Source: Eledone cirrhosa
Taxonomy: Eukaryota
Reading direction: 5' to 3'
NCBI GenBank assembly: GCA_964016885.1
Contig: OZ024746.1
Span: 34,410,001 to 34,474,000, forward strand
DNA: 64,000 nucleotides
Made by a program: the position numbers and the translations under genes
In this document: piece by piece, positions 688-63,093 of the stretch
Layout: each line of letters begins with the position of its first letter
Position numbering within the stretch: the stretch's first letter is position 1
The notes under the pieces: model-generated
Told to the model about the DNA's origin: nothing
Database searches by the model: none
Seen by the model: only the letters and a program-made list of their open reading frames with translations

Positions 688-2075
688 CATTCTCAGCCCC
701 TCACTCATCGACACAGTCTCCATCTCCTGCATCAAATCGTCTGCTTCCTTCACTGTGTTTGTCACCGGAACTGTGTCTTGGGAATATTCAGCATCCGATA
801 TCTTTTTCGTCTTAACTCTCCTGCTCTGAGCCGGTGTTACAGTAAAGTCAGAGTCCCGGTGTTTCTCCAGCGCAAGGCGCATATAATAGTCGGCTGCGAT
901 AATAAAAAGGTAAGGAGCCAGTGTATCTCCCTGGGGCATTCCAGCCAGTATCTCAAAGAAATCTGTCATCTCATCACCTGTTATGACTTCGACTTTGGTG
1001 TTGGTGTAGAGCAGTGATATGAGTTCCACTGTCTTCTTGTTGCTTCCATAAGCCTATATGAACTTCATCAGACAGTGATGGTCCACAGAATCAAAGCCCT
1101 TCCGCAAGTCAATGAAAATCATAACTGCAGGAAGGCACCTTTCTCTAGCTCCCACTAATATCCTTCTCAGCATCAAGATGTGACTGGTCGTTGATCATCC
1201 CTCTCTGAAGCCGTTCTGGTGATCCCTGACCTTCTTCTCCATCTCGGGTTGGATCCTGGTAAGAAACACCCTGTTCAGGGTCTTTACCACAGGTTACGTC
1301 AGTGAGATGCCCCTGTAGTTGTTGGTGTTAGAGAGATCCCTCATCTATGGCACTGGGACGATGTTACTGATCCTCTACTGATTCGGGGTAACTCCTTTCT
1401 CTAGAGATTAAGACGAAGTATCTGGTAGAATATATTAAGAAGCCAGAGAAGATTAATAATGCAGGCGGGAAGCCGCTAGAATTGGTTGAGAACTTGCTGT
1501 ATTTGGGAGCAAATATTGCGAACGCGGAAGTTGATGTGGTCGAGAGGAGGAAGAGTAAAGCCTGGGCGGCGTGCCACTACTTGAGATTGGTGTGGAATAT
1601 GGACCTTCGTAAAGACCTGTAGATCCGTCTTTTTCTTGCTGTAGTGGGGTCTGTGCTGCTGTACGGGCCTGAGACTTGGACACTAACCAAGAAACTCACT
1701 CAGATGGTGGATGGGTGCTACACGAGAATGCTGAGGATGGCTCTGAACATTAATCAGTATACACTGAGGATGAAAAACTCAGATCTGTACGGGAGCATCC
1801 CAAAAGTCAGCTCGAAAGTGGCACAAAGGAGACTGAGGTTAGCTGCACATGCTCACTGACATCTAGATTTGGCACTTCACTCAGTGCTCCTGTGGGAGCC
1901 CCTACATGGACACACTGGAAGAGAAAGACCACGGTTAATATTTGTTGATGTCCTAAGGACAGACACTTCTCTCTTCGAGACGCAGGACATGGCAGTGATA
2001 ATGAGGGACAGAGACTACTGGAGATTACTCGTCCATGGATCTCGGGATTTGTATGCGCCATAGATATAGACATAG
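688..2075. mobile_element. RTE-clade LINE, 5'-truncated with 5' inversion
   Basis: Minus 688-1403 encodes RT (NYRGISLT, GMPQGDTLAPYLF, ...GLRM). Plus 1404-2063 continues the same protein (IKTKYL...YLGANI...LLYGPETWTL). Flanked by ATATTAATCGGT at 676-687 and 2076-2087. Confidence 0.88.
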
Positions 2076-6497: not shown

Positions 6498-6816
6498 ATA
6501 TATATATATATATATTAGTCAAAAGGTAAAGAAAATGCTGACAAATTTTGCCAAGTGAAAAGTAGTTTAATTTGGAATAATTATAAATTAGTAATAAGTA
6601 TTAGTTAGTATTCAGTTTTAGTTTATATAGTTATTACCGGTTGCGCATTTGTTGCTTTTCAAAAATAATTTTGTGATTTTTGCTTAATCTGAATGTATAT
6701 ATAATGTATTTGGTAATAGATTGTATGATTAATTAAAAGCATGTTAAAGACATTACGCTATTGTTTTAAAGTAGTGACTATGTCACTTACTTCTTTTTTC
6801 AACAAACAAAGGGAGA

Positions 6817-6864
6817 TAAGCGGACAGATCTCTGTTTCATACTGTTGATATTCCTCAGAGCTTA
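6817..6864 (-). ncRNA. Type I hammerhead ribozyme motif
   Basis: Minus: TAAGCT-CTGAGGA-ATATcaacaGTAT-GAAA-CAGAgaTCTG-TC|CGCTTA; stems I, II and III can form. Confidence 0.7.
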
Positions 6865-7170
6865 GCACTCTCCTGGTGTGTTGAAAAATTATGAATGTTG
6901 GATTCTTATCGTCGGTCCAGCAATAATTGAAAATTAGAATTGGTGCTCTGAAATAGCGATGTGCATATGAATGTATATATCGTGTATTTGATAATACACT
7001 GTATGCTTAATTAAAAGCATTTTGAAGACCTTAGGCTATTGTTTCAAAGCAGTGACTATGTCACTTTTTTTTTTCAACAAACAAAGTTCCTGATTATTAT
7101 CAGTTCCTGATTATTACTGGAATTATATAAGAATACAACATTCATAATTTTTCAAGAGACAGAGGGGTGC

Positions 7171-7218
7171 TAAGCTCTGAGGAATACCAACAATATGAAA
7201 CAGAGATCTGTCAACTTA
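7171..7218 (+). ncRNA. Type I hammerhead ribozyme motif
   Basis: TAAGCT-CTGAGGA(7177-7183)-ATAccaacaaTAT-GAAA(7197-7200)-CAGAgaTCTG-TC|AACTTA. Confidence 0.7.
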
Positions 7219-7377
7219 TCTCCCTTTGTTTGTTGAAAAAAGAAGTGACATAGTCACTACTTTAAAACAATAGCGTAAGGTCTTCAAAGTGATTTTAATT
7301 AAGCATACAGTGTATTACCAAATACACTATATATACATTCATATATGCATCGCTATTTCAGAGGACCAATTGAAATT

Positions 7378-7423
<46 letters not shown>

Positions 7424-7455
7424 AGATCAAAAGATGGTTAAAGGAGTTCCATGTA

Positions 7456-7522
7456 TTTTATTATGCGCATTTCAAAAACAAACATCATCATGCAATAATA
7501 TTTGTGTTTTCATCAGATAAAA
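7456..7522 (-). ncRNA. Type I hammerhead ribozyme motif
   Basis: Reverse complement of the 8330-8396 motif. Confidence 0.75.
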
Positions 7523-8329
7523 CAGGAGAACATGATATGAAGGCTAAAAAACACTTGTGGATAGTGCAGTTTTAAATCAACATATGAAAAGTGGTTTTAG
7601 ATTGATGTGTGATATTGTGAAAAATATTTTGAAAACCGTTGGAAGATAATGTATAAATTAAAAGAATTTGAAAATTAACGAAGGGAAGATATGTACGAGG
7701 AAAAAATGTTTATTTAGGGAGGGGGGGGGGAGGATGAAAAAAGGGGGAGGAGATGAGAGTGAAGGTGGAGACGGAGAGATGGGTGATAGAGAGAAAGAGA
7801 TAGTTTTATAACTGAGAAAAAGATATATTGTTTTACATAGAGAGGTTGAGAACCGTAGAGAGGTTGAGAACGGTTCTCAACCTCTCTATGTAAAACAATA
7901 TATCTTTTTCTCAGTTATAAAAACTATCTCTTTCTCTCTATCACCCATCTCTCCCTCTCCACCTTCACTCTCATCTCCTCCCCCTTTTTTCATCCTTTCC
8001 ACCCCCCCCTCCCTAAATAAACATTTTTTCCTCGTACATATCTTCCCTTCGTTAATTTTCAAATTCTTTTAATTTATACATTATCTTCCAACGGTTTTCA
8101 ACCTCTCTATGTAAAACAATATATCTTCTCTCAGTTATAAAAACTATCTCTTTCTCTCTATCACCCATCTCTCCCTCTCATCTCCTCCCCTTTTTCATCC
8201 TTTCCACCCCCCTCTCTAAATAAAATATTTTTCCCAATATCACACATCAATCTAAAACCACTTTTCATATGTTGATTTAAAACTGCACTATCCACAAGTG
8301 TTTTTTAGCCTTCATATCATGTTCTCCTG

Positions 8330-8396
8330 TTTTATCTGATGAAAACACAAATATTATTGCATGATGATGTTTGTTTTTGAAATGCGCATAATAAAA
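8330..8396 (+). ncRNA. Type I hammerhead ribozyme motif
   Basis: TTTTAT-CTGATGA(8336-8342)-stem II (CAAATATTAT/ATGATGTTTG)-GAAA(8379-8382)-TGCGCA palindrome-TA|ATAAAA; 6-bp stem I. Confidence 0.78.
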
Positions 8397-8428
8397 TACA
8401 TGGAACTCCTTTAACCATCATTTGATCT

Positions 8429-8484
<56 letters not shown>

Positions 8485-17824: not shown

Positions 17825-17872
<48 letters not shown>

Positions 17873-17876
<4 letters not shown>

Positions 17877-18067
17877 AACGAGTAGGATCCCGACGGCTAA
17901 GCTCAAGCCGTTTCGACGGCTAATTCTGGACGTCCACAATTACCCGTCGAAACGGCTTGAGCTCAGCCGTCGGGGTCCTACTCGTTCCTATTATCCACTC
18001 TACTACCCTAAGTATTGAGTAATTTGGTGCGTTAAGGTCCATCTGGTTCCGTACCACATTTCCTTCG

Positions 18068-18072
<5 letters not shown>
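17873..18072 (+). mobile_element. Short asymmetric fold-back element with 3' half of an HHR (family B)
   Basis: Arm 17873-17930 is inverted at 17932-17992 (GAAAC-GGCT...AGCC-GTC|GGGG), then a ~80-nt tail; (TA)n flanks. Confidence 0.75.
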
Positions 18073-18134
<62 letters not shown>

Positions 18135-18202
18135 GTGTATGTATATATGTGTGTATTATATATGTATATATGTATATATATATGTATATATATATATATA
18201 GT

Positions 18203-18862
18203 CGGAAAAAAAATGAAACGAAATTTCATTTCCCACTCTTAGTACGGCTGTTACTTAAATATAAGTATGTACACGTACATACATATATGTATACAGACGT
18301 ACAGTAGTATGTATATACATACATGCACACATACATATATGTACGTATGGATTCACCGAACATTTATTATAATGCTCGGTGTGTTTGTAAACAAACATCC
18401 CGTATTAAGCCGTAGTGTCCAGCAACAATCGTTGCTCGTTTGTTCAACACTGACAAAGGAACGCTGTACTAGTTTCAAGCTTATTAGCTATCGTAAGCAA
18501 CGTATATCTTCCTGCCAGATTGTTGAACGTATATACTTACCTTATGCATATTAACGGCTGAGTAGCCCCATTTGCATATCGTGTGGGTTAATCGGCCGGG
18601 TGCACCGAAAACGATAAACGGTATACTTTGCTGACGATAGCTAATAAGCTTGAAACTAGTACAACGTGACTTTGTCAGTGTTGAACAAACGAGCAATGAT
18701 GGTTGCTGGACACTACGGCTAAATACCGGATGTTTGTTTGCAAACACACCGAGTATTATAATAAATGTTCGGTGAATCCATACGTACATATATGTATGTG
18801 TGCATGTATGTATATACATACTACTGTACGTCTGTATACATATATGTATGTACGTGTACATA
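18203..18862. mobile_element. Retrozyme-like element (family C): ~419-nt monomer plus inverted partial arm
   Basis: Monomer 18203-18621; 18622-18862 is the reverse complement of ~18265-18507; homologous to 59074-59583. Confidence 0.78.
18628..18664 (+). ncRNA. Minimal type I hammerhead ribozyme motif
   Basis: TTG-CTGACGA(18631-18637)-t-AGCTaataAGCT-t-GAAA-CTAG-TA|CAA. The mirror copy at 18461-18502 has a core mutation (CTTACGA). Confidence 0.78.
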
Positions 18863-18866
18863 ATTA

Positions 18867-18902
<36 letters not shown>

Positions 18903-18904
18903 TA

Positions 18905-19581
<677 letters not shown>

Positions 19582-20561: not shown

Positions 20562-21263
20562 AAGAACGAGAAATAAGATATATTTGAAGTGCCTGTACTA
20601 TGGGAAATATTACGCCAGACCCATTGGCTCGTCACCGTAAGCTTGCCGATGCATGCTCAATATCTCTGTAGCAGACGTCAGAGTGGAACGCAAACGTTCA
20701 CGTTGGTTCTTTGTTCCAATTTGTTATTCATGAAAACGTCACAGGCTTCAGCATGATCAGAAAAATACAAATTTCCAAGCTTGCGTAGTGAACACAGGAA
20801 TGACACTCGGCATAATGGCGTATGAAGGTTACTACTAGCTCACACGGTGCGCGCAACTGTATATTGCCGTCTGCTGGCTTGCTACAGAAATAGTCCGGAA
20901 ACCTTTTTCATACCACCTCGTACATGCGTGTGCGTATGTTTTATGGTTTTGTTTATTTGCTCATGTCTATTGACAGTACAATATAATTTGACACAGAGTA
21001 TGTGTTCTGCAAACACAATATGAAAACAAATTCCATCATAGATGACAATAGGCGACACCGGAATTATGTTACGGATGTCAGTAAGATATTAATGCAAACG
21101 TGGAAGGTTTTAGACAGGAAGCTTTTCCCCAATATGTCTTCGTGTCATTTCATCCCGTTTGATAAGTGTTTGCTTGGAATATGTAAATACATATATACAA
21201 ATACGCGCACACACACACATTCACACAGACACACAGACACACAGACACACAAACACACAGACA

Positions 21264-22307
<1,044 letters not shown>

Positions 22308-22999: not shown

Positions 23000-23058
23000 T
23001 TTACACTCTCACACACACACACGCACCCAAATGTATATATATATATATATATATACAT

Positions 23059-23090
<32 letters not shown>

Positions 23091-23091
<1 letters not shown>

Positions 23092-23294
23092 GGAACCAGC
23101 AAGACCCCGACAGCTGAGCTCAAGCCGTTTCGACGGCTAATTCTGGACTATTTCAGTCCAGAATTAGCCGTCGAAACGGCTTGAGCTCAGCTGTCGGGGT
23201 CTTACTGGTTCCTATTACCCACTCTACTACCTCAAGTATTGAGTACTTTGGTGCGTTATGGTCCACCTGGTTCCTTACCATATTTCCTTCGTTA
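23091..23294 (+). mobile_element. Family B asymmetric fold-back
   Basis: 23091-23149 is near-perfectly inverted at 23155-23213, then the same tail as 17993-18072. Confidence 0.8.
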
Positions 23295-23321
23295 TATATA
23301 TATATATATATATATACAAGT

Positions 23322-25459: not shown

Positions 25460-25590
25460 GCAACAGTTTTATTTAAATTGTTGGGATACAACAAGCAAAT
25501 ATTTTTATAACTGATATAAAGCACTCGACAAATATTTGGAGTAGATATACGATATTAATAAATGGAAACTATATTTATAAAACCATATTT

Positions 25591-25653
25591 ATTTCATTAT
25601 ATATATTTCAAGGATACCAAGTTACATTATGGTATGCCTTCATCAGACAAAAT
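25591..25653 (-). ncRNA. Type I hammerhead ribozyme motif
   Basis: Minus: ATTTTGT-CTGATGA-AGGcATACCA...TGGTATCCTt-GAAA-TATATA-TA|ATGAAAT. Confidence 0.7.
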
Positions 25654-25877
25654 ACAATATATAACAGTTTTTATAAATAGACATTGACGTACCCCTTTAA
25701 CAAATTGACCGTTGTTTTTGGAGGCCATCAGGATAGTGATTTGTTTACTTTAGTAACTCATAGTGGTAAGAGTATGTAAAAAGATGGGGAGAGAGAGAGA
25801 GAAACGTGGAGAAAAAACAACGGTCAATTTTTTAAAGGGGTACGTCAATGTCTATTTATAAAACGGTTATATATTGT

Positions 25878-25940
25878 ATTTTGTCTGATGAAGGCATACC
25901 ATAATGTAACTCGGTATCCTTGAAATATATATAATGAAAT
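25878..25940 (+). ncRNA. Type I hammerhead ribozyme motif
   Basis: CTGATGA 25885-25891, GAAA 25922-25925; stem I ATTTTGT/ATGAAAT with two G-U pairs. Confidence 0.7.
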
Positions 25941-25980
25941 AAATATGGTTTTATAAATATAGTTTCCATTTATTAATATC

Positions 25981-26058
<78 letters not shown>

Positions 26059-28859
26059 ATATAGTTGGGGGGTTGCGTGTGCTTAAGTATTTCGCTTAGA
26101 AATTGTATATGGTTGTGTAAATAGATACTAGAAAAGAAAACATTTTCATATCTTCTTTTGAGCACGAATATATTTCTATTTGATTTGCTCCATCTGTCTT
26201 TCTCTCCGCCTTTCTCTTTATCCACATCTCCCTTCCCTTGTCACTATATCTTCTAAACGTTCGAAAAGTTAAAATTGTTTTCCTAATATATTAATAGTTA
26301 CATTAAAATTAAACATCATTGTACTATCCTGTTATCCCCAGTTAATGTTGGATTTCATCATATATGATATATATTCATGTGTATGTACTCTTAAATAATG
26401 AAAGCAATAACAAAACAACGTATGTACAACTAAACATATATACGTGGAGCACACATACTGAAATACATCCAATACACACATTGGTATGCACGGAGACAGC
26501 TAAATACAATATCATAATATAACATGCCATACCAAACCCCATTTTAAAAATCTACATGAATGCTACATAAGATATTAATTTGTGCATTCAACTTAATTAT
26601 GAATTATTTGTATATTACAATAAGTTATTAAAAGATACTATTTAATACTCCAAGAAAATAGATAAATCACACCTGAAGAAATATGGTAATGATGAGTTAA
26701 AATTGCGGAAATGTAACTATAAATTTTCAATTGAAATTGCGGTAATGTCTAAAGCTAACGCAATATATGTATAGCAAATGAATACTAAAAGTTAGAAAGT
26801 AAACGAAGGCGGATAAAGAAAGACAGCATTAAGAAGGCGGGCATTTTCGTAATGGAATAGGTGTAAGGTTGAGAAAGAAAAAAAGAAAAGTATAGCAAAT
26901 GAGTATTTAAGTTAATCATCGAAAACAATAGTAAATATAAATTAGTGGAGAGATGCATATGAATAGTAAATTTCAATATTCGTATATATCAAAATTCATG
27001 CAAAGAATATTCTTTGATATTTTATTGTCTTATAGAATAATGAAATCATGTAACTGCTACGACGATATACAATATGAAGTAAAGCGTAAGTATATATTAA
27101 GATACAAAGGACCCACACACACACACGCACACACGACTCTAATTTTTCCCTATATGTATCTAAACATCTATCGATCTATCTTTCTCTGTATATATATATA
27201 TATCACATAAGAAACGGAGAATCAGTGTTGCGACGAATGAAATTTATTAGATATATTACAATAGTTTCTCTGGCGACCTGCTCGTGGCACTATCGATGTA
27301 ATGATCGAACCTGACTCTGAAATTACAAGGTCCTCAGATACGTGTCGATTCTACGAAGCAGAGTTTCTAAATGTCACTCGGCAGGTTAGATCCTGTTGTT
27401 GTCATTCTCTGAGGGGTGACGAATTGTACACGTCATCGGTATTGTTGCCCACTCATGACCGTACTATATTTGGTTCCATTCATTCGAAGAATATATTTTC
27501 TTCTCTGCCATCGCCCATTTTCCTCTATCTTTCTATTTCTTCTTTGATTTCTCATTCCATTTTCTGGTGAAGGACTATCGGCTCCAGAAAAGTTAAGACA
27601 CGTTTCTACTAAGTACATTAAGCGTAAAACTAATGATATATTTCTTTAATGTACCGTGTCGTTTCCTTTGATATTTCTGTTTGTCTAGCATATATACATG
27701 TAAGTTCTGCATGACAGTATGTTCTTCACTTCAAACTGCTGTCGAATCCAGTTGTTGGTGTTCCTGCACACCGAATGTATGGCAGCATCTCTCGCAACCT
27801 ACTTCCGAGGTACTTATAATTGTTTACTTCCTTGATGATATTTGGTTTTAGAATGGTCAGAAACTGCCAATCGAAGGCAGACTTAGACGGTTACAGGTAT
27901 AGAGAAAAATAACTAAACAGCATCACGATAGATCCCAGCCAATGCCCTAATAGTAAGTAATTATATATTTCATATTATCAAATGTTAAAAATAGTCACTT
28001 TGAAAGCGGGAAAATGTTTTATTTCGATTAGAAATTGTTTATATATTTCGCGATTCATTGTGCGGTAGAAGACACATGTAGCTTTTTCATATATTGTTTT
28101 CTAATGGCTGTTTTTATCTTTCAAATCAACGCTAGCATTGGTTTCAAAATTTAACAACGAAACGTTTCCGGCTTTTATCGTTATGTACTTCAGTTTCATT
28201 AGTTGTGGCATTAGGCACTGTTTGAGGTAAACTCCCGCTTTTATTTTTAATAGCTCAGTCATCTCATGTTTCGAATGTCTAACATAAAAGATGCTATTAG
28301 GTGGAATATAAACGTATAATTGTACAACGGTATATCATTCAGATAGAATTAAATTATTATATCATTGCACATTCGTTTGAATCAGTGGAGTTAAATTCGT
28401 TGATTAGATAATTGTTTAGTTATATATTGAATACTCTATGAACAAGCTCCTTTTTCTTTCCATAGCATACTTATTTAAGTTAGTTTTTAAGTTCCACAGC
28501 AATGTTAACACAATTAAAGATCTTATGTATCCTTTTCTCCTTGTTCTATACATTTTACTCGTGGAAGTATTTTAGTCACACCAAGTGAAACTACTTAATG
28601 CATAAATATTATATAACAATGATCGAAAAATATCCGTTCTTCTTACCATTCTGTTTTGAAAACAGGTTCCACTCATATAAGGTTTCAAAATATTTGCATT
28701 AATGATTCTGAATCAACTTTCACTCATGCTTGCTTTCTACATTTCAGCAACATCAGTACAACTTTCAAACCTGAAATTGCAAGGATATTTTCGACCGATT
28801 GATGAATCTCCGGTCAATCTATAATGAATATGATAAATTTATATGTATGTACATATATA

Positions 28860-31025
28860 ACGGCGATGAATTAGTTTTTGCGAGGTTTTTTATATGAAAT
28901 CGTGTGTCGAAACAAATATTGTTATACTTGGGGAGGGTCATATTTGTGTAATATTGCCAGAATTAATAACAGAACACACTCACTGTTTGGTTGGTTTTCG
29001 CATTTCGCTTCTGTGTCTTTTATATGGGTAATCAAATTTATGCGGTCCTCAATGTTGCCATTGACTGACCAACGGTAAAAAATAATACAGATACAATATA
29101 GACACAAACACATATATATAATTTATCAAAGTTCTTTCGTTGCACATCTGCAACATCGTCCGTGGTGCTATAGATTCCTCCCTGTTGCATTGTATTTCTA
29201 CGCCATCTTTATGTAGTCTGTTTATATATTTATTTATTTATTTGTTTGTTTGTTTATTTTATTTTGTCTTCTTTGCGCATGCGTTTGTGTGTGTGTATAG
29301 TGTTTTGTTTGATGTGTGTTCGTGATTGGGTGACTGTGTATTGGTTAATGTGTTCTATGTTTACTAGTGTGTGTTTATATGTGTTTGTTGTTATTGGGCT
29401 TGTGTATGTATTTATTTATTTATTTATCTATTTATTTATACTTCTCTTAGGTCAGTGTTGTTTGTTGGGGTGTTGTTATTCCACTCATTCTTTCTGTTTA
29501 GTCTTGGCCTTCTAAGTTCTATTTCACTAGCCTCTCTGATTTGCCTATCTGCTGGGTCATTTCTATGTTTAGATATTATTCTAATTTCTATGTTGTCTAT
29601 GTTACCATCGCGTTGTTGTCTGGCATGTTCGTATAGTACTGACCCGTTTTTTCGTCCTTTTAGTTCCCTCCAGTGTTGGTCTATCCTTTCACCTATGCTA
29701 CGAGCTGTTTCGCCTATGTATGTTGCTGTCATGTTTCTTCAAGTACCCTCTGTACATATTATGCTATAGATTACGTTTCTAATTTTACAGTTTATCCGGG
29801 GATTTACCTTACATATGATACACTTCCTATTAGTACAGTGGATTTTCTTAAAAGGGTAGGTTTTGCTGATCAGGGATTTTATGGGGGTTCCTGGCTTTTC
29901 TACCACCTTTATCTTTAAGTGGGTCTTTCTCAGGGCCTTTCTACACTGGTTAGCTAATTTCCCTCCAGGGGTAGCATCCACAAACATGACACTCTGGTAA
30001 TCTCTGGTTGTCGTACCATGAGGTGGCTTTCCCTATCTTATGTCTGGCCATATCTAAGCTATTCCAGGATTTGCTCCTGTATAATGGGCAAATTCCTTTC
30101 ATGTCCAGTTCTATGAGGGTCTTAAACTTCTCCATGGCTCCTTCTTATACTCTGACATTGTCTCTTTGGTTGTAGCCAGAGAACTGAATGCGGTTGATGA
30201 AGTGTTGGATGTGTCTTTCCATTTCTGTTGGGTCGCACATGCGGGACACATTCTTCATCACTCGTACCAAATCTGCGATCAGAATATTAAACTTAGCACT
30301 ACTGGACATTGCTGAGATTTTGAGTATCAGGTATTTGGAGGCCATGGGTTTAGCATAGTGTGAGTGGAGAATGTGGGCTCTCTCGTCTATAGTGTTAATC
30401 CAGAGTTCCGTGTCTAATACAGGTAGTCTATTGTTAGGGTGTTTGGAAGGGTATTCGATAGTTACAGTTATACTCTGGTGTATGGAATTAGCTATCTGCT
30501 GGATGCTTTCCATTGTGCTACGTTCTAAATTAAATTTGATAGTGCTCTCTAGTGGGGATGTTCTTATAACTATATTGATATCATCTACGTAACGAGTGTA
30601 CATGATGAGGTCTATGGAGCTCTCATTAAGGAGATCTTTAAGACTCCTTCCCCACCATACCATAAAAAGGTTGGCAACATCACTAGCTATGCTGACGCCA
30701 ATGGCTGCTCCCTCATTTTGGGTGTAGATCTTCTCTTTGAACTGGAATATGTGGCCCTTTAGGGTAGTTTTGATACTAGCCCCTATTGCATGTGCGACCA
30801 TTTGTCTACCTGATCATTGTTTTGGGGGGTCCGTATAGCTTTGGTCCACCCAATCCACCTTCCCATGGGAGTCTTTTTTGCCATGGAGGTTATGGTGGGG
30901 GTCTACCTCTTATGGGTCTACTAGGGCAGAAACGTCTATGGTCATGGCTGTCTAGGTAGTCAGTGTCGTAGGTAAGTCTAAGTAGGAGGCCCAGTTCGTC
31001 TGTGTCGACGTCGCAGAACTCCACG
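28860..31025 (-). mobile_element. Older, 5'-truncated, frameshifted copy of the 54444-58300 PLE family
   Basis: ORF pieces 30145-30801 (YVDD), 29950-30135, 29739-29987 and 29436-29732 (YIGET) are nearly identical to the 724-aa ORF; it ends in the same 3' tail. Confidence 0.95.
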
Positions 31026-34376: not shown

Positions 34377-37000
34377 ATGAATACTAAATATAGGAAGTTC
34401 AAAACCAACAAGCTTCATAAAGACATGGATACCTTTCTAAACAAGCTGCACACCACTAACGGGATTATTGTCAAAGCGGATAAAACATCTAACGTGTACA
34501 CAATGGACATTAATACTTACCACGACCTTATACGAAAGGAATTACATGAAAAATATAAGAAAACCAATAACAAAGCACTACTTAACATCAACAAACAAGC
34601 ACACCATATTGTCAAAAGTCTAGAACTTGAAGATAGAACTGAGCCCATGACAACTTGCACCCCCCCCCCTTTAATCTTAAGGACCACAAATTAGATTTCC
34701 TAGATAAACCCACTATTAGTTTAATATGCCCATTTAAGTCAGACATAGGTAAAATTAGCAAGCATATTTTAGATAGAATAATAATACAATTAAGGAATAA
34801 ACTAGTTATTAAACTTTGGGACAATACTAGCGACACAATTAAATGGTTTAATAGTATAGATAACAAAAATACCTCTAACGTTATACAATTCGACATTAAT
34901 GACTATTACTCCTCCATATCACCCGATACTCTAAACAAGGCACTAGAATTTGCGAAAGCCAACTCTGACTTAACCGACGACGAAATAAACATTATCCTAG
35001 CAGCTAGAAAGACGATAATTAAATTTGAAAATAACTTTTGGATACGTAAGGATAGAATAGATAACTTTGACATAACTATGGGTGCTAATGACTCAGCACA
35101 AGTTACGGATATTGTTGGTATATACATAGCCCACACCTTACATAATAAAGTTAGTTACCTTCAAGGCGGAATATATAGAGATGACGCTCTCCTATTAGTT
35201 AAAAAATGAATAAACAAAACATAGAACGAACCCGTAAGAGCATTAGAAGAACCCTAGATAGCCATGGCCTTAAAATCACCTACGAATATAGTACCAAAGT
35301 AGTTAATTTTCCTAGCTCTAACCACCCACTATCTATTATAAGGTCCGTACCACATAGTATATCACTTAGAATATCCCGCCTCTCATCTAACCAACAAATA
35401 TTCGATCAACACGCTGAATACTACAATACTGCATTAGAACGGGCTGGCCACACTGACAAACTAGAATACATGGACCCACACAACCATAAAACACATAACC
35501 ACAGACACGCCAAACGCCCCACAAACACCCGCACACACGCACCTAGAGCCTCTAATACTAACCACACCACAAATACAACAGCAACATCAAAGCAAAACAG
35601 AACACGGAGTAGATCTTACATTTGGTATAATCCTATTTTTAACTCTTCTATTAGCTTTAACTTACCTTCCACATTCTACAAAATTATAAAAAAACACTTT
35701 CCAAATTCACATAAATATAGTAGTATACTTAATACCAAAACAATTAGACTATCTTATTCCACTGCTCAAACCTAGACGCACACATTAAGATGCTCAACGC
35801 CAAAAAACTCCGTAACAACAACACCCCAATCACTCAACACAATAATACACCTAATACACAACCACCCACTAACAATCAGTATGCACAAAACACACTCACA
35901 CACACATCCCAGCCCCTTTATAACTCCACCACTGCCCATAACTGAAATTGTAATTGCCACCTTCCCGAGACTTGTCCATTGAATAACGAATGTTTGCATT
36001 GAAACCTAGTGTACAGGTGCTCGGTTGAGTCGGGCAACCAAACCAGGCACTACATAGGCAGCACTGCAAACACCTTCAAAACTCGTTGGTACACGCATCG
36101 TTACGCAATAAAGCACCACCAACACCGTTGCGTAACGACTCTCGCCGACAAAATTTGGCACTTAAAAGAGAGTAACCGACAATACACCCTTAAATGGACC
36201 AAACTCTCACAGGCTCCTCCATACCGGAGTGGGAGGAAAACGTGCCCGTTGTGTAATAATGAGCTCTTCCATATCCTAATCTCAACAAAATTGAAAGGTC
36301 AATTTTTTGCCAGCATAAACTGAAAGCGAAATTCTCACGCTTCAAACCTTCAACCAAATCCTAACACTACCTATCTTTCTGCCCTAAATACCAATTCTAC
36401 ACCCCTAAAAATAGACTATATATGAAATTTAATACTTTCTTCCTTCTCTGTACTCTGGTAAGACTTTCGCCTGTCCACTTCCAAATGCCTCTTAAAATTC
36501 TATCTTCCTTCTCTCTCCCTCTACTCATCACAACTTTTAGCACACAACCCTCCTCCCCCTCCCTATACAAATCCTCTCACACCACACTATCTCTTTCTCT
36601 TTCTCTCCCTACCTCTATCCCTTTTCTCTATCTCTCTCCCTCTCGTTTGCCCCTCTCTCTCTCTGTTCCTCTATCTTACACTACTACCCCTTATTTCATT
36701 TCCTAAGGTCATTCCAACTTTGTATTTTGAAAATTCGGATGCTACAGTATCTTTCTTGATTGCCTATTATGACATAGTGTAGCAATAATGGACTGAAATT
36801 CTGATGAAACAATTGTTAATACGTGGATTAAATTATTTTGTAACTGTTTACCTTCGTCCTATTTCTCTTCTTTGATTACACTCCTCGTTTGTTCGTGTTT
36901 CCACTACAGAATCCCTACCAAACTGTCGAGTCACCTTAACATATGTTGAGAACTTTCCTCACAACTTGTTCTACCAAGCTTTGGAATACTCCTAATAACT
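34377..37000 (+). mobile_element. Decayed Naiad-type Penelope-like element (RT + GIY-YIG)
   Basis: KADKT, LKDHK, FDINDYYSSI, FDITMGANDSAQ, GIYRDD, IWYNP, CNC..CPL...C, VY..YIGST...FKTRW..H, KW..L, CPLC..E. Frameshifts and stops throughout; TA runs at both ends. Confidence 0.88.
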
Positions 37001-38605: not shown

Positions 38606-38684
<79 letters not shown>

Positions 38685-38686
<2 letters not shown>

Positions 38687-38828
38687 AAAAAGTGTAACCC
38701 CGACGGCAGAGCTCAAGCCGTTTCGACGGCTATTTCTGGACTTTTTCCTATTGCCCTCTCTACTACCCTAAATATTGAGCACTCTGGTGCGTTATGGTCC
38801 ATCTGGTTCTTTACCACACTTCCTTCGT

Positions 38829-38830
<2 letters not shown>
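38685..38830 (+). mobile_element. Family B element, internally deleted
   Basis: Left arm (CCCGACGGCAGAGCTCAAGCCGTTTCGACGGCTA) is joined directly to the tail; (TA)n flanks. Confidence 0.75.
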
Positions 38831-38859
<29 letters not shown>

Positions 38860-39049
38860 TTTTTTTTTTATACATTAAAAGAGAAAGCTTTAAGCGATAC
38901 TCTGACCAACTCCATCTCACTCAACAAACATTAGCATATACCTAAATATAATCCCAATTATGTGTTTAGGGTGCTAACTAGATAGTATTCCGTGGATAAT
39001 TGGTTGTATTATTTTATATGAGACATAATTAAATAAATCTCTCTTTCTT

Positions 39050-49571: not shown

Positions 49572-50669
49572 ATTATCTAAAAAGGGATGGGCTCCACAAG
49601 TTTACGATAGACAGGTAAGTTCATAAAGTAAATGTATTCTATTGACGTAAGTGTGTCGCCAGGAAGCAACATACTATAATCTTGAGCAAGATCAATATTA
49701 AAAAGCAAGATATAAGCCACTTAGACGTCTCCTGATTTGTCAGGTCCCTCTTGATTACTACTGGTAAAATATAACCCGGTATAACCTATCACATGGTCCG
49801 GTTGTTGGTGACTAAACCGGCAACCTCACTAAGCAAACTTAGTGAGGAGTGTGATTTTGGAGACCCAGGAGGATGAATGAAAAAAACAGACAACGGGCAG
49901 AGGAACTCATGCGAGTCAATTACCATCGTGTGCGTAAGTATATGTTAATTCATGAGTGTGGTTAACATTGTGCTTATATGTATTTGCATATAGACATATA
50001 TATATATATGAAAATATATATATATGAAAATATAATAATTTAATGTTATTTGAATGAGGTGTCCTAAAATGTGAAATGTCTAACTAATACTTAGAATTAA
50101 TAAAGCAGCATTAATAGATTATATTTAACCCACAGAATTTAACATCTGAATGAGGCACTTATGATTTAAACATCCTCGTTCCAAAATCATTAGTTTTATT
50201 AAAAAAAAAAAAAAATGATGAACGCAAAATAATTAATTATGGTTGACTTCTTAAATATCAGAGAAATACAAATATACTTGAGAATGTTTAGATTGTATGC
50301 CTACGCTGGAATTAATTAGATCCTAGAGGATGTTGAAAGCAATCTGCATAACTGACTTATGTCCCTTAGATTCTGATCTCATATACAAAGAATGTTGATT
50401 AAAATGACAAAAGTGAAATATTATTGTAGAATCAGTCAATTATTTAAGCACAATTAATTACAGATAATGTTAATTAAGGAGGAAGGTTATTCAAATATAT
50501 ATTTGAATTTATATTATACGTAATGTGAAGCAGCAAAACAAAAAAGGTAATGAATTTCTATTTATAATGAGAATGTCTAGAAAAAAAGGGAAGAGACATT
50601 TCATTGAAACAAAATTGCAATCTGTTTAAAATGTTGTAGGTATTAAGGTTTGAAATGTTACCATAAAAA

Positions 50670-51960
50670 ATGTGTCGATGAATCATCCTTACGATGTATC
50701 TGTTTTCGAAAGACTCCATCAATACCTACGTACATACTGTATATGTTATATGAATGTATATATGCGTATGTATATTAGTATATATATAAATATATATATA
50801 TATATATAGTAAGGTGTATTATTGGTTGTCTAAAGCGGTCCAATAAATTTATGTTAGCAATATTAAGTTCTCCACGCTATTGTATATCTCCAGATCCGTT
50901 CAAGGGAACAGCTAGATGATGTAAAACGTAGTATAAGTTTCAAAATAAAAATCTGAAGGCAAGGTAAAATTCCAATCATTTTAATGACGACACATGTTTC
51001 AATAAGATATACATCGATCGTAAAGCCATGATCAATTGTCATTGATCTCATCAGGTGAAAATAAATTGTCTTCAAATTATTGATATGAGGGAGAAAATAG
51101 CAATGTTCGCTCACAGAGTTTATTCCCTCATATGAAGATCCAGTAGTCAGAAATACTGAAGCGATGTCACAGAAAAAAAACAAGTATAAGAATAAAAATA
51201 TACCAACACAGAATCCACCGAATGTTCGTTTACAAAACAACAAATGCTACATTGGTCAAATCTCAATTTGACGACGTAAATTGGAAATATTGGTTTAACC
51301 ACAGCCCCATACACACACAAACACGCACAAGCAAGCAAGTAAGTTCAGTTCAGTGTTCTGTTATACATGTATAGATTGAAATGTAGTATTTGTTGTTTTG
51401 TAAACGAACTTTCGGTGGATGCTGTGTTGGTACATTCTTATTCTTATATTTGTTTTTTCTTTTTCTATGACATCGCTTCGGTGTGTGTGAGACTGTGTGT
51501 GTACCCACTCACACTAATTGTGACCTTCTATAAGTCTACAGGTTTGATGTTGTGTTTATATGTGTACATATATACTTTTTTTTTATTTGACCTCGAGCCG
51601 GTGTGTATGGGTGTTGAGTGTATGTGTACCCACTCACATTAACTGTGACCGACTGTATTTCTACATATCTTATTAATGTCCAGCGTCCGTTTCAGCTATG
51701 GAGATTTGACAGTTTTATGACCCTAACTGAAGCTGATAGCAGTCGCCGTATTTCTGACTACTGGCTCTTCATATGAGGGAATAAACTCTGAGTGAACATT
51801 GCTAATTATCTCCCTCATATCAAGAATTTGAAGACAATTCATTTTCACCTGATGAGATCAGTGATAATTGATCATGGCTTTACGATCGATATATCTCTTA
51901 TTGAAACATGTGTCGTGATTAAAATGATTGGAATTTTACCTTGCCTTCAGATTTTCATTT

Positions 51961-52005
<45 letters not shown>

Positions 52006-52107
52006 AATATGCATACACATAATCACATTTATATAACATATATGTACGTAGGTATTGATGCAGGCTTTCGAAAACAGATACATCGTAAATATGATTCATC
52101 GACACAT
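50670..52107. mobile_element. Nested fold-back element with HHR-like motifs
   Basis: Inverted pairs: 50670-50776/52003-52107, 50940-51155/51748-51962 and 51157-51253/51380-51482. Confidence 0.72.
51845..51918 (+). ncRNA. Hammerhead-like motif (mirror copy 50985-51058, minus)
   Basis: TCAC-CTGATGA-GATCA...TGATC...ATT-GAAA-CATGTG-TC|GTGA; closure of stem II is weak. Confidence 0.5.
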
Positions 52108-52149
52108 TATATATGTATATATAAATATATATATATATACTAATATAGA

Positions 52150-54392: not shown

Positions 54393-54451
<59 letters not shown>

Positions 54452-55545
54452 ATATTTGGGGAGGGTCATATTTGCGTAATATTGCCAGAATTAATAACAG
54501 AACACACTCACTGTTTGGTTGGTTTTCGCTTCTCGCTGTCTTTTATATATATATATCTGCGATCTAACTTACTCGGTCCTCAATGTTGCCATTGACTGAC
54601 CGGCGGTCAAAAATAATACAGATACAATATAGACAAACACATATATATATAGTTTACATAAATCTTTCGTTGCACATCTGCAACATCGTCAGTGGTGTTA
54701 TATTCATTGTTCCTCCTGTTGTGTTGTATGTCTACGCCATTTTTTTTTTTTTGTTCAGTCTGTCTATATATTTATTTATTTATTTGCTTGTTTGTTTATC
54801 TTATTTTATTTTGTCTTCTTTGCGCATGCGTTTGCGTGTGTGTATAGTGTTATGTGTGATGTGTGACTAGTGTGTATAGTCTTGTGTCTGCTGGGTGACT
54901 AGTGTGTGTTTATGTGCTTGTGTATGTATTTATTTATCTTATTTTATTTAATTTAATTTACTTATTTATTTATACTTCTCTTAGGTCAGTGTTGTTTGTT
55001 TGGGTGTTGTTGTTGTTCCACTCATTCTTTCTGTTTAGCTTTGGTCTTCTAATTTCTATTTCACTGGCCTCTCTGATTTGCCTATCTGCTGGGTCATTCC
55101 TATGTTTAGATATTATTCTAATTTCTATGTTGTCTATGTTACCGTCATGATGTTGTCTAGCATGTTCGTATAGTACTGACCCGTTTTTTCGTCCTTTTAG
55201 TTCCCCCCAGTGTTGGTCTATCCTTTCACCTATGCTACGAGCTGTCTCACCTATGTATGTTGTTGTCGTGTTTCTGCAAGTACCCTCTGTACATCTTATG
55301 CTATAGACTACGTTTCTAGTTTTACAGTTTATCCGGGGGTTCACCTTACATATGATACATTTCCTATTGGTACAGTGGGTTTTCTTAAAAGGGTAGGTTT
55401 TGCTGATCAGGGATTTTATGGTGGTTCCTGGCTTTTCTACCACCTTTATTTTTAAGTGGGTCTTTCTCAGGGCCTTTCTACACTGGTTAGCTAACTGGTT
55501 AGCTAACCAGAGGCCCAACAACTTGGGATAAAACCTGTAGAAGGC

Positions 55546-57720
55546 TTGGTTAGCCTCAAGCAGCGCACAAGGGATGGTGAGGTAGTGTGTCTACCCACAG
55601 ATAAGTCTGGTAGGATGTCAATAGATAGCATGCCGAACTACATCGAGGCAATGCAACCCCACATCACCAACACGAGCGAAGTTGCACAACTAACACACGA
55701 TGGGAGAGAAAAAATCCTCAACGCTCACATGATGATGTGGACTGACATCCTAAAGCCAAGCAGACGCACTGCCAACAACTTCCAGGCGTCTAACAATGGC
55801 ATACCACCCTTGTATGGGCTCCGCAAAGACCACAAGACTGTCGACGACCCGACAATAGGACCACCAACAAGACCTGTATGCGGAGCTAATATAGCTAGCA
55901 ACTACAGGATCTCCTACTTCCTCTCAATGGTTATACGCCCCATAATCAAGATGTCCCCAGATGTATGTGAAAGTACAGAGGACCTCCTCAGCAGAATCAG
56001 TGAGTGCAACAAAAACAGGAGCCTATCCAACTGCATAATAGGCAGCATGGATGTGGTGTCACTGTACCCATCCATTAACATTGATTTTGCTGTGAAAAGA
56101 TGTGTGGAGATGATCATTGAGAGTGAGGTGGAGTTCTGCGACGTCGACACAGACGAACTGGGCCTCCTACTTAGACTTACCTACGACACTGACTACCTAG
56201 ACAGCCATGACCTTAGATGTTTCTGCCCTAGTAGACCTATAAGAGGTAGACCCCCCACCATAACCTCAATGGCTAAAAAGACTCCCATAGGAAGGTGGAT
56301 TGGGTGGACCAAAGCTATACGGACCCCCCAAAACACTGATCAGGTAAGAAAAATGGTCGCACATGCAATAGGGGCTAGTATCAAAACTACCCTAAAGGGC
56401 CACATATTTAAGTTCAATGAGAAAATCTACACCCAAAATGAGGGAGCAGCCATCGGCGTCAGCATAGCTGGCGATGTTGCCAACCTTTTCATGGTATGGT
56501 GGGAAAGGAGACTTAAAGATCTCCTTAATGAAAGCTCCATAGACCTCATCATGTACTCTCGTTATGTAGACGATATCAATATAGTTATAAGAACACCCCC
56601 ACTAGAGAGCACTAACAAGTTTGATTTAGAACGTAGCACGATGGAAAGCATCCAGCAGATAGCTAATTCCATACACCAGAGTATAACTGTAACTATAGAC
56701 TTCCCTTCCAAACACCCTAACAATAGACTACCTGTATTAGACACAGAACTCTGGATCAACACTATAGACGAGAGAGCCCAAATTCTCCACTCACACTATG
56801 CTAAACCCATGGCCTCCAAATACCTGATACTCAAAAACTCAGCAATGTCCAGTAGTGCTAAGTTTAGTATTCTGATCGCAGATTTGGTACGAGTGATGAA
56901 GAATGTGTCCAGCATGTGCGACCCAACAGAAATGGAAGGACACATCCAACACTTCATCAACCGCATGCAGTTCTCTGGCTACAACCAAAGAGACAGAGTC
57001 AGAGTATACGAAGGAGCCATGGAAAAGTATAAGACCCTCATAGAACTGGACATGAAAGGAATTTGCCCACTATACAGGAGCAAATCATGGAATAGCTTAG
57101 ATAGGGCTAGACATAAGATAGGGAAGGCCACATCATGGTACGACAACCAGAGATATCAGAGTGTCATGTTTGTGGATGCCACCCCTGGAGGGAAATTAGC
57201 TAACCAGTGTAGAAAGGCCCTGAGACAGACCCACTTAAAAATAAAGGTGGTAGAAAAGCCAGGAACCACCATAAAATCCCTGATCAGCAAAACCTACCCT
57301 TTTAAGAAAACCCACTGTACCAATAGGAAATGTATCATATGTAAGGTGAACCCCCGGATAAACTGTAAAACTAGAAACGTAGTCTATAGCATAAGATGTA
57401 CAGAGGGTACTTGCAGAAACACGACAACAACATACATAGGTGAGACAGCTCGTAGCATAGGTGAAAGGATAGACCAACACTGGGGGGAACTAAAAGGACG
57501 AAAAAACGGGTCAGTACTATACGAACATGCTAGACAACATCATGACGGTAACATAGACAACATAGAAATTAGAATAATATCTAAACATAGGAATGACCCA
57601 GCAGATAGGCAAATCAGAGAGGCCAGTGAAATAGAAATTAGAAGACCAAAGCTAAACAGAAAGAATGAGTGGAACAACAACAACACCCAAACAAACAACA
57701 CTGACTTAAGAGAAGTATAA
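55546..57720 (+). CDS. PLE reverse transcriptase + C-terminal GIY-YIG endonuclease (N-terminally truncated, no internal stops)
   Basis: PTDKSG, LYGLRKDHK, RPVCG, SMDVVSLYPSI, QNEGAAIG, YSRYVDD, LPVLD, CxxxxCxxC linker, VVY.I.C....C...YIGET.R...R...H...HH, R.I.EA..I....P.LN. The frame is open from 55507 and the listed start is TTG. Confidence 0.93.
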   Translation: MVSLKQRTRDGEVVCLPTDKSGRMSIDSMPNYIEAMQPHITNTSEVAQLTHDGREKILNAHMMMWTDILKPSRRTANNFQASNNGIPPLYGLRKDHKTVDDPTIGPPTRPVCGANIASNYRISYFLSMVIRPIIKMSPDVCESTEDLLSRISECNKNRSLSNCIIGSMDVVSLYPSINIDFAVKRCVEMIIESEVEFCDVDTDELGLLLRLTYDTDYLDSHDLRCFCPSRPIRGRPPTITSMAKKTPIGRWIGWTKAIRTPQNTDQVRKMVAHAIGASIKTTLKGHIFKFNEKIYTQNEGAAIGVSIAGDVANLFMVWWERRLKDLLNESSIDLIMYSRYVDDINIVIRTPPLESTNKFDLERSTMESIQQIANSIHQSITVTIDFPSKHPNNRLPVLDTELWINTIDERAQILHSHYAKPMASKYLILKNSAMSSSAKFSILIADLVRVMKNVSSMCDPTEMEGHIQHFINRMQFSGYNQRDRVRVYEGAMEKYKTLIELDMKGICPLYRSKSWNSLDRARHKIGKATSWYDNQRYQSVMFVDATPGGKLANQCRKALRQTHLKIKVVEKPGTTIKSLISKTYPFKKTHCTNRKCIICKVNPRINCKTRNVVYSIRCTEGTCRNTTTTYIGETARSIGERIDQHWGELKGRKNGSVLYEHARQHHDGNIDNIEIRIISKHRNDPADRQIREASEIEIRRPKLNRKNEWNNNNTQTNNTDLREV

Positions 57721-57990
57721 ATAAATAAGTAAATTAAATTAAATAAAATAAGATAAATAAATACATACACAAGCACATAAACACACACTAGTCACCCAGC
57801 AGACACAAGACTATACACACTAGTCACACATCACACATAACACTATACACACACGCAAACGCATGCGCAAAGAAGACAAAATAAAATAAGATAAACAAAC
57901 AAGCAAATAAATAAATAAATATATAGACAGACTGAACAAAAAAAAAAAATGGCGTAGACATACAACACAACAGGAGGAACAATGAATATA

Positions 57991-58050
57991 ACACCACTGA
58001 CGATGTTGCAGATGTGCAACGAAAGATTTATGTAAACTATATATATATGT
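57991..58050 (+). ncRNA. Hammerhead motif in PLE 3' UTR (mirror copy ~54640-54698, minus)
   Basis: CTGACGA(57997-58003)-t-GTTGCAgatgTGCAAC-GAAA-G.TTTAtgTAAAC-TA; stem I is poorly paired next to the cleavage site. Confidence 0.6.
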
Positions 58051-58300
58051 GTTTGTCTATATTGTATCTGTATTATTTTTGACCGCCGGTCAGTCAATGG
58101 CAACATTGAGGACCGAGTAAGTTAGATCACAGATATATATATATAAAAGACAGCGAGAAGCGAAAACCAACCAAACAGTGAGTGTGTTCTGTTATTAATT
58201 CTGGCAATATTACGCAAATATGACCCTCCCCAAATATAACAATATCTGTTTCGACACACGATTTCATATAAAAAACCTCGCAAAACTAATTCATCGCCGC

Positions 58301-58331
<31 letters not shown>

Positions 58332-59012: not shown

Positions 59013-59073
<61 letters not shown>

Positions 59074-59076
<3 letters not shown>

Positions 59077-59583
59077 TATGTACACGTACATACATATATG
59101 TATACAGACGTACAGTAGTATGCATATATATATATATATATATATACATACATGCACACATGTATATATTTACGTATGGATTCACCGAACATTTATTATA
59201 ATGCTCGGTGTGTTTGTAAACAAAAATCCCGTATTAAGCCGTAGTATCCAGCAACCATCGTTGCTCGTTTGTTCAACACTGACAAAGGAACGCTGTACTA
59301 GTTTCAAGCTTATTAGCTATCGTCAGCAACGTATACCTTCCTGGAAGATTGTTGAACGTATATACTTGCCTTATGCATACTAACAGCTGAGAAGCCCAAT
59401 TTGCATATCGAGTGGATTATTCGGCCGGGTGCACCGACAAAGATAAACGGAAAAAAATGAAACGAAATTTCATTTCCCACTCTTAGTACGGCCGTTACTT
59501 AAATATAAGTATGTACACGTACATACATATATGTATACAGACGTACAGTAGTAGGTATATATATACATACATGCAAACATATA
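59074..59583 (-). mobile_element. Family C retrozyme-like element, 1.2 tandem units
   Basis: 59074-59150 recurs at 59507-59580 (period ~433 nt); circular permutation of 18203-18621. Confidence 0.8.
59290..59332 (-). ncRNA. Minimal type I hammerhead ribozyme motif
   Basis: Minus: ACGTTG-CTGACGA-t-AGCTaataAGCT-t-GAAA-CTAG-TA|CAGCGT. Confidence 0.8.
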
Positions 59584-59859
59584 TAACTTTACTGCAAAAC
59601 ATGGCGTCTAACCCTCAATCGATACTGCCAATCGAATAATAATAATAATAATAATAATGATTTCTTTATTACCCACAAGGTTTTACATAAAGTAGACATT
59701 AATGACAGAACAGGACAATACAGGACGGTACAAATGGGCATTTCTGCGTGTAAAAAAAAACAAGAAACAGTGGATGTAATAATAGAACGATGAAAAAATT
59801 CCCCAATAGGGGGGAGACTTCCGAGCGACATTGGTGGAGAAAGCCCATTACAAAGCCGC

Positions 59860-62800: not shown

Positions 62801-63093
62801 AGGAAGATGGCCCGTATGGCAAGATCCAAACCTCTCCAAAAAAGCACAGCAACTCCTCCCCCCGATCCCGGATGGCTGGGAGATGCGTACACATCGTAGC
62901 CGCCGAAGATCGGTGCGAAAGCCTGTGCTTCGAAGATTCTGGTCTCGCTGATGGCCACTACATCTATGTTTAGTGACCTGAGGTCGTTGAGCATGTGGCC
63001 CTGCTTCCATGACGACCCCAAGCACGCGCATTTATGCTGCCTATTCTGAGTGAGGTCATGTTGAAATGGAGTGGAAAAGATGGGAAAGACCAC
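59860..63093 (-). pseudogene. LINE ORF2 (endonuclease-RT), multiple frameshifts and stops
   Basis: Consecutive ORF pieces 62524-63093, 61807-62523, 61742-62014, 60789-61976, 60287-60715, 60092-60283. Confidence 0.9.

Follow-up and report, generated by a model that had tools for sequence, protein, structure and literature searches.

The 64,000-nucleotide stretch of Eledone cirrhosa DNA analyzed here (contig OZ024746.1, positions 34,410,001 to 34,474,000; hereafter the window) contains a hammerhead-bearing repeat at positions 18203–18862, and the question that it raises is whether such a repeat is a retrozyme, copied from circular or tandem RNA, or the truncated UTR of a Penelope-type element (PLE). 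The first-pass annotation favored a retrozyme, having read the interval as a lone complete monomer with one hammerhead, circularly permuted relative to a sibling copy. We found the interval to be a slightly decayed, two-armed inverted insertion of a ∼420-base non-coding hammerhead repeat. In the reading that we prefer, to which we assign a probability of roughly 0.55, this decayed two-armed retrozyme insertion arose when a Neptune-type PLE likely copied a more-than-unit-length, and probably circular, RNA in trans.

With unit coordinates given as r1–r420 in the hammerhead sense and the predicted cut placed after r155, the first arm (18198–18622, minus strand) comprises just over one unit, is 5′ truncated at r1, and reaches, with its tail, a 3′ end at site B that passes into (TA)n. 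The span described earlier as extending from CGGAAAAAAAATG to GATAAACGG is indeed a single pass through the 420-bp unit (18203–18622). The interval is not a lone monomer; it also holds an inverted second arm (18620–18869, plus strand), a partial unit (r114–r369) whose 3′ end lies at site A, without the tail, and likewise runs into (TA)n. The arms are 95% identical and joined 5′-to-5′ through a 2-nt GG microhomology, between a (TA)n-rich target microsatellite on the left (18075–18197) and a (TA)n target microsatellite on the right (18870–18980). Nor is a “complete monomer” the natural unit: one end is the fixed 3′ end and the other is one among many scattered 5′ truncation points, and arm 1 has unit length through a chance 5′ truncation after a single turn.

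Arm 1 carries a type I hammerhead at 18450–18520 (minus strand; core 18497–18491, predicted cut GUA/CAG between 18467 and 18466) whose stem III, ACUAGU, is the palindrome ACTAGT first noted in the DNA. Its core reads CUUACGA rather than CUGACGA, with base 18495, an invariant core position, changed (G5 to U). This hammerhead is predicted to be inactive, and with its core mutated the copy is ill suited as an assay substrate. The hammerhead of arm 2 (18623–18667, plus strand; predicted cut between 18661 and 18662) has an intact core at 18631–18637, a single stem I mismatch, and a distal stem removed by 5′ truncation. One hammerhead is thus the right count for the unit, but the interval contains two hammerhead-derived motifs. 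Also on the minus strand of arm 1 are the octamer ATGCAAAT (18570–18577), which with the conserved block and the TATA-like element (about 18535–18530) that come after it makes a candidate internal snRNA-type promoter; a TA-rich long hairpin of variable length (18259–18352), closed by a covarying long-range helix; and a PLE-type tail (18198–18258; 59 nt in the family) with a conserved hairpin inside, lying between initiation sites A (between 18259 and 18258) and B (about 18198). The minus strand of the flagged copy folds far better than shuffled sequence (z = −7.6), a result to which the TA-rich hairpin contributes part, and on the plus strand a 95-aa ATG frame runs through that same hairpin. 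Taken by itself, the flagged copy is an ordinary, mutated member of its family.

The sibling (59067–59585, minus strand) consists of one arm, 1.2 tandem units long, whose core at 59326–59320 is intact and whose 3′ end lies at site A in (TA)n. It does fuse the end of the unit to its start, as previously described, with a closed junction at about 59441–59458; as special evidence, however, the circular permutation fails, since any tandem template yields 1.2 head-to-tail units. On the 3.0-Gb assembly, an exact 38-mer from the hammerhead stretch gave 5,030 matches (0 for the reversed control), an exact 25-mer downstream of the hammerhead gave 10,519, and a relaxed hammerhead core gave 27,838, the last including older subfamilies of 450–540 bp at 70–90% identity. 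The family exceeds 10,000 units, and tens of thousands of hammerhead cores are a notable share of this genome. Its largest array has ∼50 units (on contig C1), and consecutive exact cores occur in the family, though not in the 18203 copy or its sibling. The unit is closed on itself without an ORF, as the first-pass annotation held: we counted 3,617 exact head-to-tail junctions genome-wide, and 74 full units (406–452 bp, with lengths in all three mod-3 classes and longest ORFs of 32–129 aa, variable) have no conserved ORF, nor did a search of both strands of the circularized unit find one. Because closed junctions and units are so numerous, permutation is the normal state of the family and no local accident; the one-off local duplication that had been named as the competing explanation was not borne out. 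The GC content of the unit is 37%, below the 45% ceiling that goes with the 150–450 bp tandem repeats of non-LTR retrozymes. By sequence criteria, we are highly confident that the family is a non-LTR retrozyme. The repeat is present in four sequence runs of unknown kind, which speak to presence only and have no bearing on expression, ends, or circles.

A 466-bp relative is 67% identical to the unit over 212 nt and has the hammerhead, tail hairpin, and octamer in common with it. This hammerhead repeat of 466–469 bp (loci L206–L224; on C1, e.g., 5738326–5752444) has a canonical G-C at the base of stem II, the same octamer block, and two 3′ ends like those of the 420-base family; one pattern that catches it gave 11,309 matches, older variants of the 420-base family among them.

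Insertion ends were mapped for 158 arms, in 97 insertions at 82 loci, drawn from the distinct loci among the first 100 listed 38-mer matches, 26 more from the first 100 25-mer matches, five others, and the window; the sample is position-ordered and mostly from C1, not random. The 3′ ends fall at site A (last templated base r369) in 61 of 158 arms, at site B (r428) in 72, and elsewhere in 25, so that 133 arms end at one of two sites separated by 59 nt. TAT closes both sites, with (TA)n after it, and exact B-type ends into (TA)n number 3,358 genome-wide. In the sampled arms, 5′ ends are scattered across the unit; an apparent pile-up at r1 (20 of 158 arms) was discarded as largely a BLAST edge effect, the ends scattering upstream. 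All 49 two-arm inverted insertions are joined 5′-to-5′ with their 3′ ends outward, and by end type they comprise 37 A+B, one B+B, and no A+A pairs, plus 11 with one other end. After five local duplicates were dropped (two from L148, L160, and two from L171), 32 of 33 pairs were A+B (p = 4 × 10⁻⁹), which amounts to a near-strict rule of one site per arm. The flagged locus is such a pair, with arm 1 at B and arm 2 at A. Classical single-molecule twin priming, in which an arm stops where the other starts, was also rejected; by inspection, 5′ ends do not cluster there.

These ends bear on the idea of a satellite- or MITE-like repeat that spread at the DNA level, its permutation due to local duplication and its hammerhead incidental. 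Growth of that kind is visible in L086 and in the 50-unit array, as are local duplications of whole insertions (L148, L159/L160, and L171), but fixed 3′ ends with scattered 5′ ends, a single tail per inverted pair, scatter across numerous contigs, covariation at the RNA level, and A>G changes that are unequal between strands all speak against it. The polarity of the ends rules out DNA-level spread as the main route, and we consider this the least probable of the readings weighed here.

A Neptune-like PLE in the window, at 54444–58303, is built in the same way. It is two-armed, with a tailed arm ending at 58303 and a tail-less arm ending at the position equal to 58245; the tail is 58 nt long, within the ORF start at 58220, and both arms end in (TA)n. 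The element has a 737-aa open frame, a minimal hammerhead at 57998, and an RT frame in which a CxxxxCxxC linker and a GIY-YIG-like end were recognized by eye; Pfam gave only a weak RT match, and no GIY-YIG match, for this element. From these motifs and its architecture, we take it to be of the Neptune/Nematis type. A second Neptune-like family in the examined loci has the same two ends, 56 nt apart, and in the Neptune-like PLEs the two ends lie 56–58 nt apart at ORF codons 9 and 28. Because the retrozyme insertions share both the two-armed build and the tail with the window's Neptune-like PLE, machinery of this type very probably mobilizes the repeat. The element at 54444–58303 may serve as an architectural model of the repeat's insertion, and no donor role is implied. 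A further copy of it lies at 28837–31024, and fragments of a second PLE-type RT family together with a further Neptune-like RT fragment occupy 34643–35775 and 30145–30813. Since the insertions bear the PLE tail and the inverted-arm footprint, “retrozyme versus PLE” is a false choice: the copy is not a truncated PLE UTR, as the first reading maintained, but retrozyme and PLE are not alternatives.

The ends, tail length, and target that the repeat shares with PLEs, the PLE fragments near many copies, and the view that retrozymes descend from pLTRs, expressed in part of a recent study (10.64898/2026.07.22.740005), could all be taken to mean that the copies are 5′-truncated ends (pLTR or UTR) of an autonomous PLE, usually falling short of its ORF. 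We consider this very unlikely. At the sampled loci, four RT queries placed none of 45 free 5′ ends within PLE coding sequence, which agrees with the expectation that copies are unattached to an ORF; the queries matched within 1.5 kb of 10 of the 45 ends, the nearest same-sense match being 500 nt away, and as they come from the window, PLE families too distant from them could be missed. Upstream of the 45 ends, a search for shared sequence returned only the unit itself, other repeats, and local duplicates, with no unknown sequence common to loci, and long arms pass into another unit instead. The neighboring PLE fragments that we read are separate insertions behind a TA tract. Sampled PLEs bear minimal hammerheads with a long stem II, whereas the retrozyme bears a canonical one. 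Comparison of the unit with the UTRs of PLE fragments in the examined loci (few families) revealed no detectable similarity and no pLTR homology, and looking for a parent PLE with the stem III palindrome turned up only the 466-bp relative and variants among the matches listed.

Several other repeats in the window and the mapped loci have comparable structures. A different canonical type I hammerhead family, with a longer stem III, forms an inverted two-armed insertion ending in (TA)n at 6687–7379 (cores at 6858, minus strand, and 7177, plus strand). Large palindromic or inverted repeats at 7379–8473, 21179–21980, 25542–25989, and 50662–52115 are probably other two-armed insertions, with hammerhead-like cores at 7516/8336 and 25646/25885. 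A ∼200-bp repeat of MITE or PLE type, containing a 120-bp near-perfect hairpin, lies in (TA)n at 17872–18075, 23018–23316, and 38624–38875 and often adjoins retrozyme copies (e.g., L003, L094). Fragments of an L1/Tx1-like non-LTR element (an RT with a Pfam match and an AP-endonuclease-like frame) occupy 60789–63093 on the minus strand. At locus L237 (about 1440–1530, minus strand), an antisense tRNA-like stretch, in which ARAGORN calls no gene, adjoins a copy whose start coincides exactly with the predicted cut site.

Rfam at the gathering threshold gave no match in the 64-kb window, and the hammerhead is therefore called from motif, folding, and covariation. The family hammerhead has a type I core, a 6-bp helix I plus distal stem, a 4-bp helix II, and a 2-bp helix III. 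The minimal hammerhead of PLEs has a 7–8 bp helix II with an extra base, a short helix I, and little or no helix III (Cervera 2014), a type that the family fails on its 4-bp helix II and long helix I. In an alignment of 12 units from three subfamilies and the 466-bp relative, 93% of cells pair (28–44% in slid controls), and 16 of 51 pairs are changed on both sides (matched by 0 of 500 shuffles), although most of these changes come from two to three related sequences and represent few independent events. The compensatory changes lie in hammerhead stems I and II, in the helix around site A, and, in a single case, in a helix spanning the r420/r1 junction, where two rows of the 466-bp relative are misaligned; because this last helix covaries, the working RNA would read through the junction. 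Stem III, 2 bp with a palindromic loop, has a form described as working as a dimer, and self-cleavage is predicted by analogy, probably as a dimer via the palindrome. Position 10.1:11.1, at the base of stem II, is U.U in the family, like axolotl HHR_Amex2, and G-C in the 466-bp relative; the U.U suggests that cutting would be slow. A splice donor (AG/GTAAGT) upstream of the hammerhead was considered and rejected, being absent from older subfamilies.

The octamer and adjoining block are retained in all subfamilies and in the 466-bp relative. Newt satellite 2 uses an octamer. It is a hammerhead satellite with an internal snRNA-type promoter (Coats et al., 1994, as cited in part of PMC2220036), and because the octamer and block upstream of the hammerhead are kept throughout the retrozyme family, the octamer/TATA block is, by analogy, a candidate internal promoter here. 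No proximal sequence element was identified.

What, then, was the template? The permutation had been ranked as the strongest evidence for circular or tandem RNA; a tandem or circular template is supported by the copies, but a circle is not singled out by them. Candidate 5′ ends at the predicted cut site numbered 57, against 15 and 22 at control sites, an excess that did not survive inspection of 20 candidates (controls uninspected), of which 4 were clear and 3 probable junctions and 13 were substitutions or deletions in read-through copies. True stops at the cut site are few compared with the tens of thousands of read-through cores. Given no 5′-end pile-up there, cut linear monomers are not the main template, though the ribozyme is conserved; copies that cross the cut site freely would fit ligated circles or uncut multimers alike.

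The latter may be written as a full account, in which the same element and PLE enzyme are at work, the template is an uncut linear multimer from tandem arrays, and any circles are by-products. It accounts for every DNA feature, and numerous source arrays are present. The PLE reverse transcriptase starts internally and needs no RNA end, and for the anole PLE in vitro hammerhead cutting is not needed and uncut, unprocessed RNA serves as the main substrate (PMC11167929); on that account uncut tandem transcripts would give the same permutations. The U.U at the stem II base, with the slow cutting that it suggests, and the adjoining of units from different subfamilies also fit. Five of 36 adjacent unit pairs differ at ≥2 diagnostic sites (8/14 in L071, 6/13 in L110), which a single monomer circle cannot yield. 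Against it, compensatory changes keep the hammerhead stems paired, so that cutting seems to matter for spread, and cut ends are not enriched as cDNA stops; young arms of 5–8 near-identical or strictly periodic units are found; and related metazoan retrozymes accumulate mainly as circles. We give the uncut multimer a substantial minority chance and, because the ribozyme is kept, cut products go uncopied, and related retrozymes accumulate as circles, judge a circular template, on this partly analogical ground, to have somewhat better than even odds.

Variation within insertions adds to this picture. Opposite arms have 8 rare variants in common over 5,119 bases, whereas unrelated copies have 10 over 194,131 (a ∼30-fold difference), and diagnostic sites are discordant in 11% of comparisons between opposite arms against 42% for unrelated copies. 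Opposite arms therefore derive mostly from a single source, to which later gene conversion could add. Higher-order array periods are two units (L086, L108, and L170), three (L171), and four (part of the large array), with such periods also in L087–L089, and all of these would fit multimeric circles, periodic source arrays, or unequal crossover; in L086 an AB dimer has later grown at the DNA level. Every other unit of L086 and L108 has a hammerhead stem change. On the hammerhead strand, A>G changes outnumber T>C (55 versus 29 and 40 versus 12 when events are counted, 25 versus 20 and 24 versus 9 when sites are), and A>G makes up 4 of 15 shared rare variants and 17 of 255 unshared ones (p = 0.02, with events not independent), a weak hint that the hammerhead strand is the RNA and that the template is edited. 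A concentration of subfamily switches at the cut site, as a ligation scar, was sought and dropped; switches fall in several intervals, with no signal.

Copying of a circle could proceed as follows. Transcription of tandem arrays would likely follow the hammerhead strand, perhaps starting at the conserved octamer/TATA block. The hammerhead would cut, probably as a dimer via the palindromic stem III, and ligation of the products would give monomeric or multimeric circles, by analogy with coral, mussel, and axolotl retrozymes. A PLE endonuclease would then cut both strands of (TA)n, with each end priming at A or B, 59 nt apart. Of this, the insertions themselves show the two ends, the target, and the one-site-per-arm rule; the enzyme is what we infer from them. 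A PLE protein (anole) does cut and extend both target strands in vitro, with starts at two internal positions on the RNA, to either side of the tail (Frangieh et al., 2024, PMC11167929). Both cDNAs would continue through junction and cut site alike, end at scattered points, and be joined 5′-to-5′ by microhomology, giving the structure observed, and certain arrays, judging from L086, would later grow at the DNA level. More speculatively, and with the odds against it, a dimeric Neptune-type PLE enzyme might grip one circle (monomer, dimer, or trimer) at the structured 59-nt tail and present A to one break end and B to the other, both reverse transcriptases then rolling round the same circle.

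The family resembles the metazoan non-LTR retrozymes, for which passages of PMC7229834 report that RNA, cutting, and circles were demonstrated and PLE mobilization was proposed: its canonical type I hammerhead sits in a structured, low-GC tandem repeat that is non-coding and has thousands of copies, and, as in mussel and coral, it co-occurs with PLEs bearing minimal hammerheads. Unlike those retrozymes, it is known here from DNA alone; its tail, inverted arms, and (TA)n target are counted here, and insertion ends do not feature in those passages. According to the portion of Li, Clavereau and Pollet (2026; 10.64898/2026.07.22.740005) considered here, retrozymes are non-autonomous PLE derivatives whose mobilization mechanism is open, and 8 of 9 Xenopus retrozyme dimers remained uncut in vitro. 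As in Xenopus, monomers, dimers, and multimers of a hammerhead repeat occur alongside PLEs; the link there is co-occurrence plus pLTR homology, whereas here it is an insertion footprint, with no pLTR homology in the sampled PLEs. Among EN+ PLEs, a 30–40 bp tail is often at one end only and inverted 5′-truncated copies occur (sections of Craig et al., 2021, PMC8557442). The repeat shares with EN+ Neptune-type PLEs, as the relevant sections describe them, 5′ truncation, partial tandems, an inverted 5′-truncated arm, a tail confined to one end, (TA)n targets, and two internal initiation sites (PMC8557442, PMC11167929, PMC3846280). It differs in having no ORF and a tail of 59 nt rather than 30–40 nt, which nevertheless matches the 56–58 nt of this genome's Neptune-like PLEs; and the one-ended tail, “often” or “optionally” present in the corresponding sections of the EN+ PLE papers (PMC8557442, PMC3846280), is close to a strict one-per-pair rule in the retrozyme family. 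MRC1 and other non-autonomous Chlamys PLEs of Chlamydomonas also make multicopy head-to-tail insertions by PLE machinery, but in the sections cited their 3′ ends are generally similar to those of their autonomous partner, and canonical hammerheads are absent from most Chlamys (PMC8557442). A literature search of open papers (main texts) returned no paper dealing with retrozymes of cephalopods or with the ends of retrozyme insertions, and the word “ribozyme” does not occur in the main text of the Octopus vulgaris repeat paper. The family thus appears to be a new non-LTR retrozyme with a clear PLE insertion footprint and a putative circular stage.

The return of animal retrozymes to DNA has so far been proposed, with PLE enzymes and a circular template, from co-occurrence and homology. 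This family links retrozymes to Neptune-type PLEs by a countable footprint and supplies two exactly placed initiation sites together with a tail, and the one-site-per-arm rule constrains how PLE insertion itself works. If both reverse transcriptases do roll round one shared circle, then the one-site-per-arm rule and the two-, three-, and four-unit periods would be a genomic record of shared-circle copying, and the unit would be a self-transcribing (from its octamer promoter), self-cutting, PLE-parasitic replicon.
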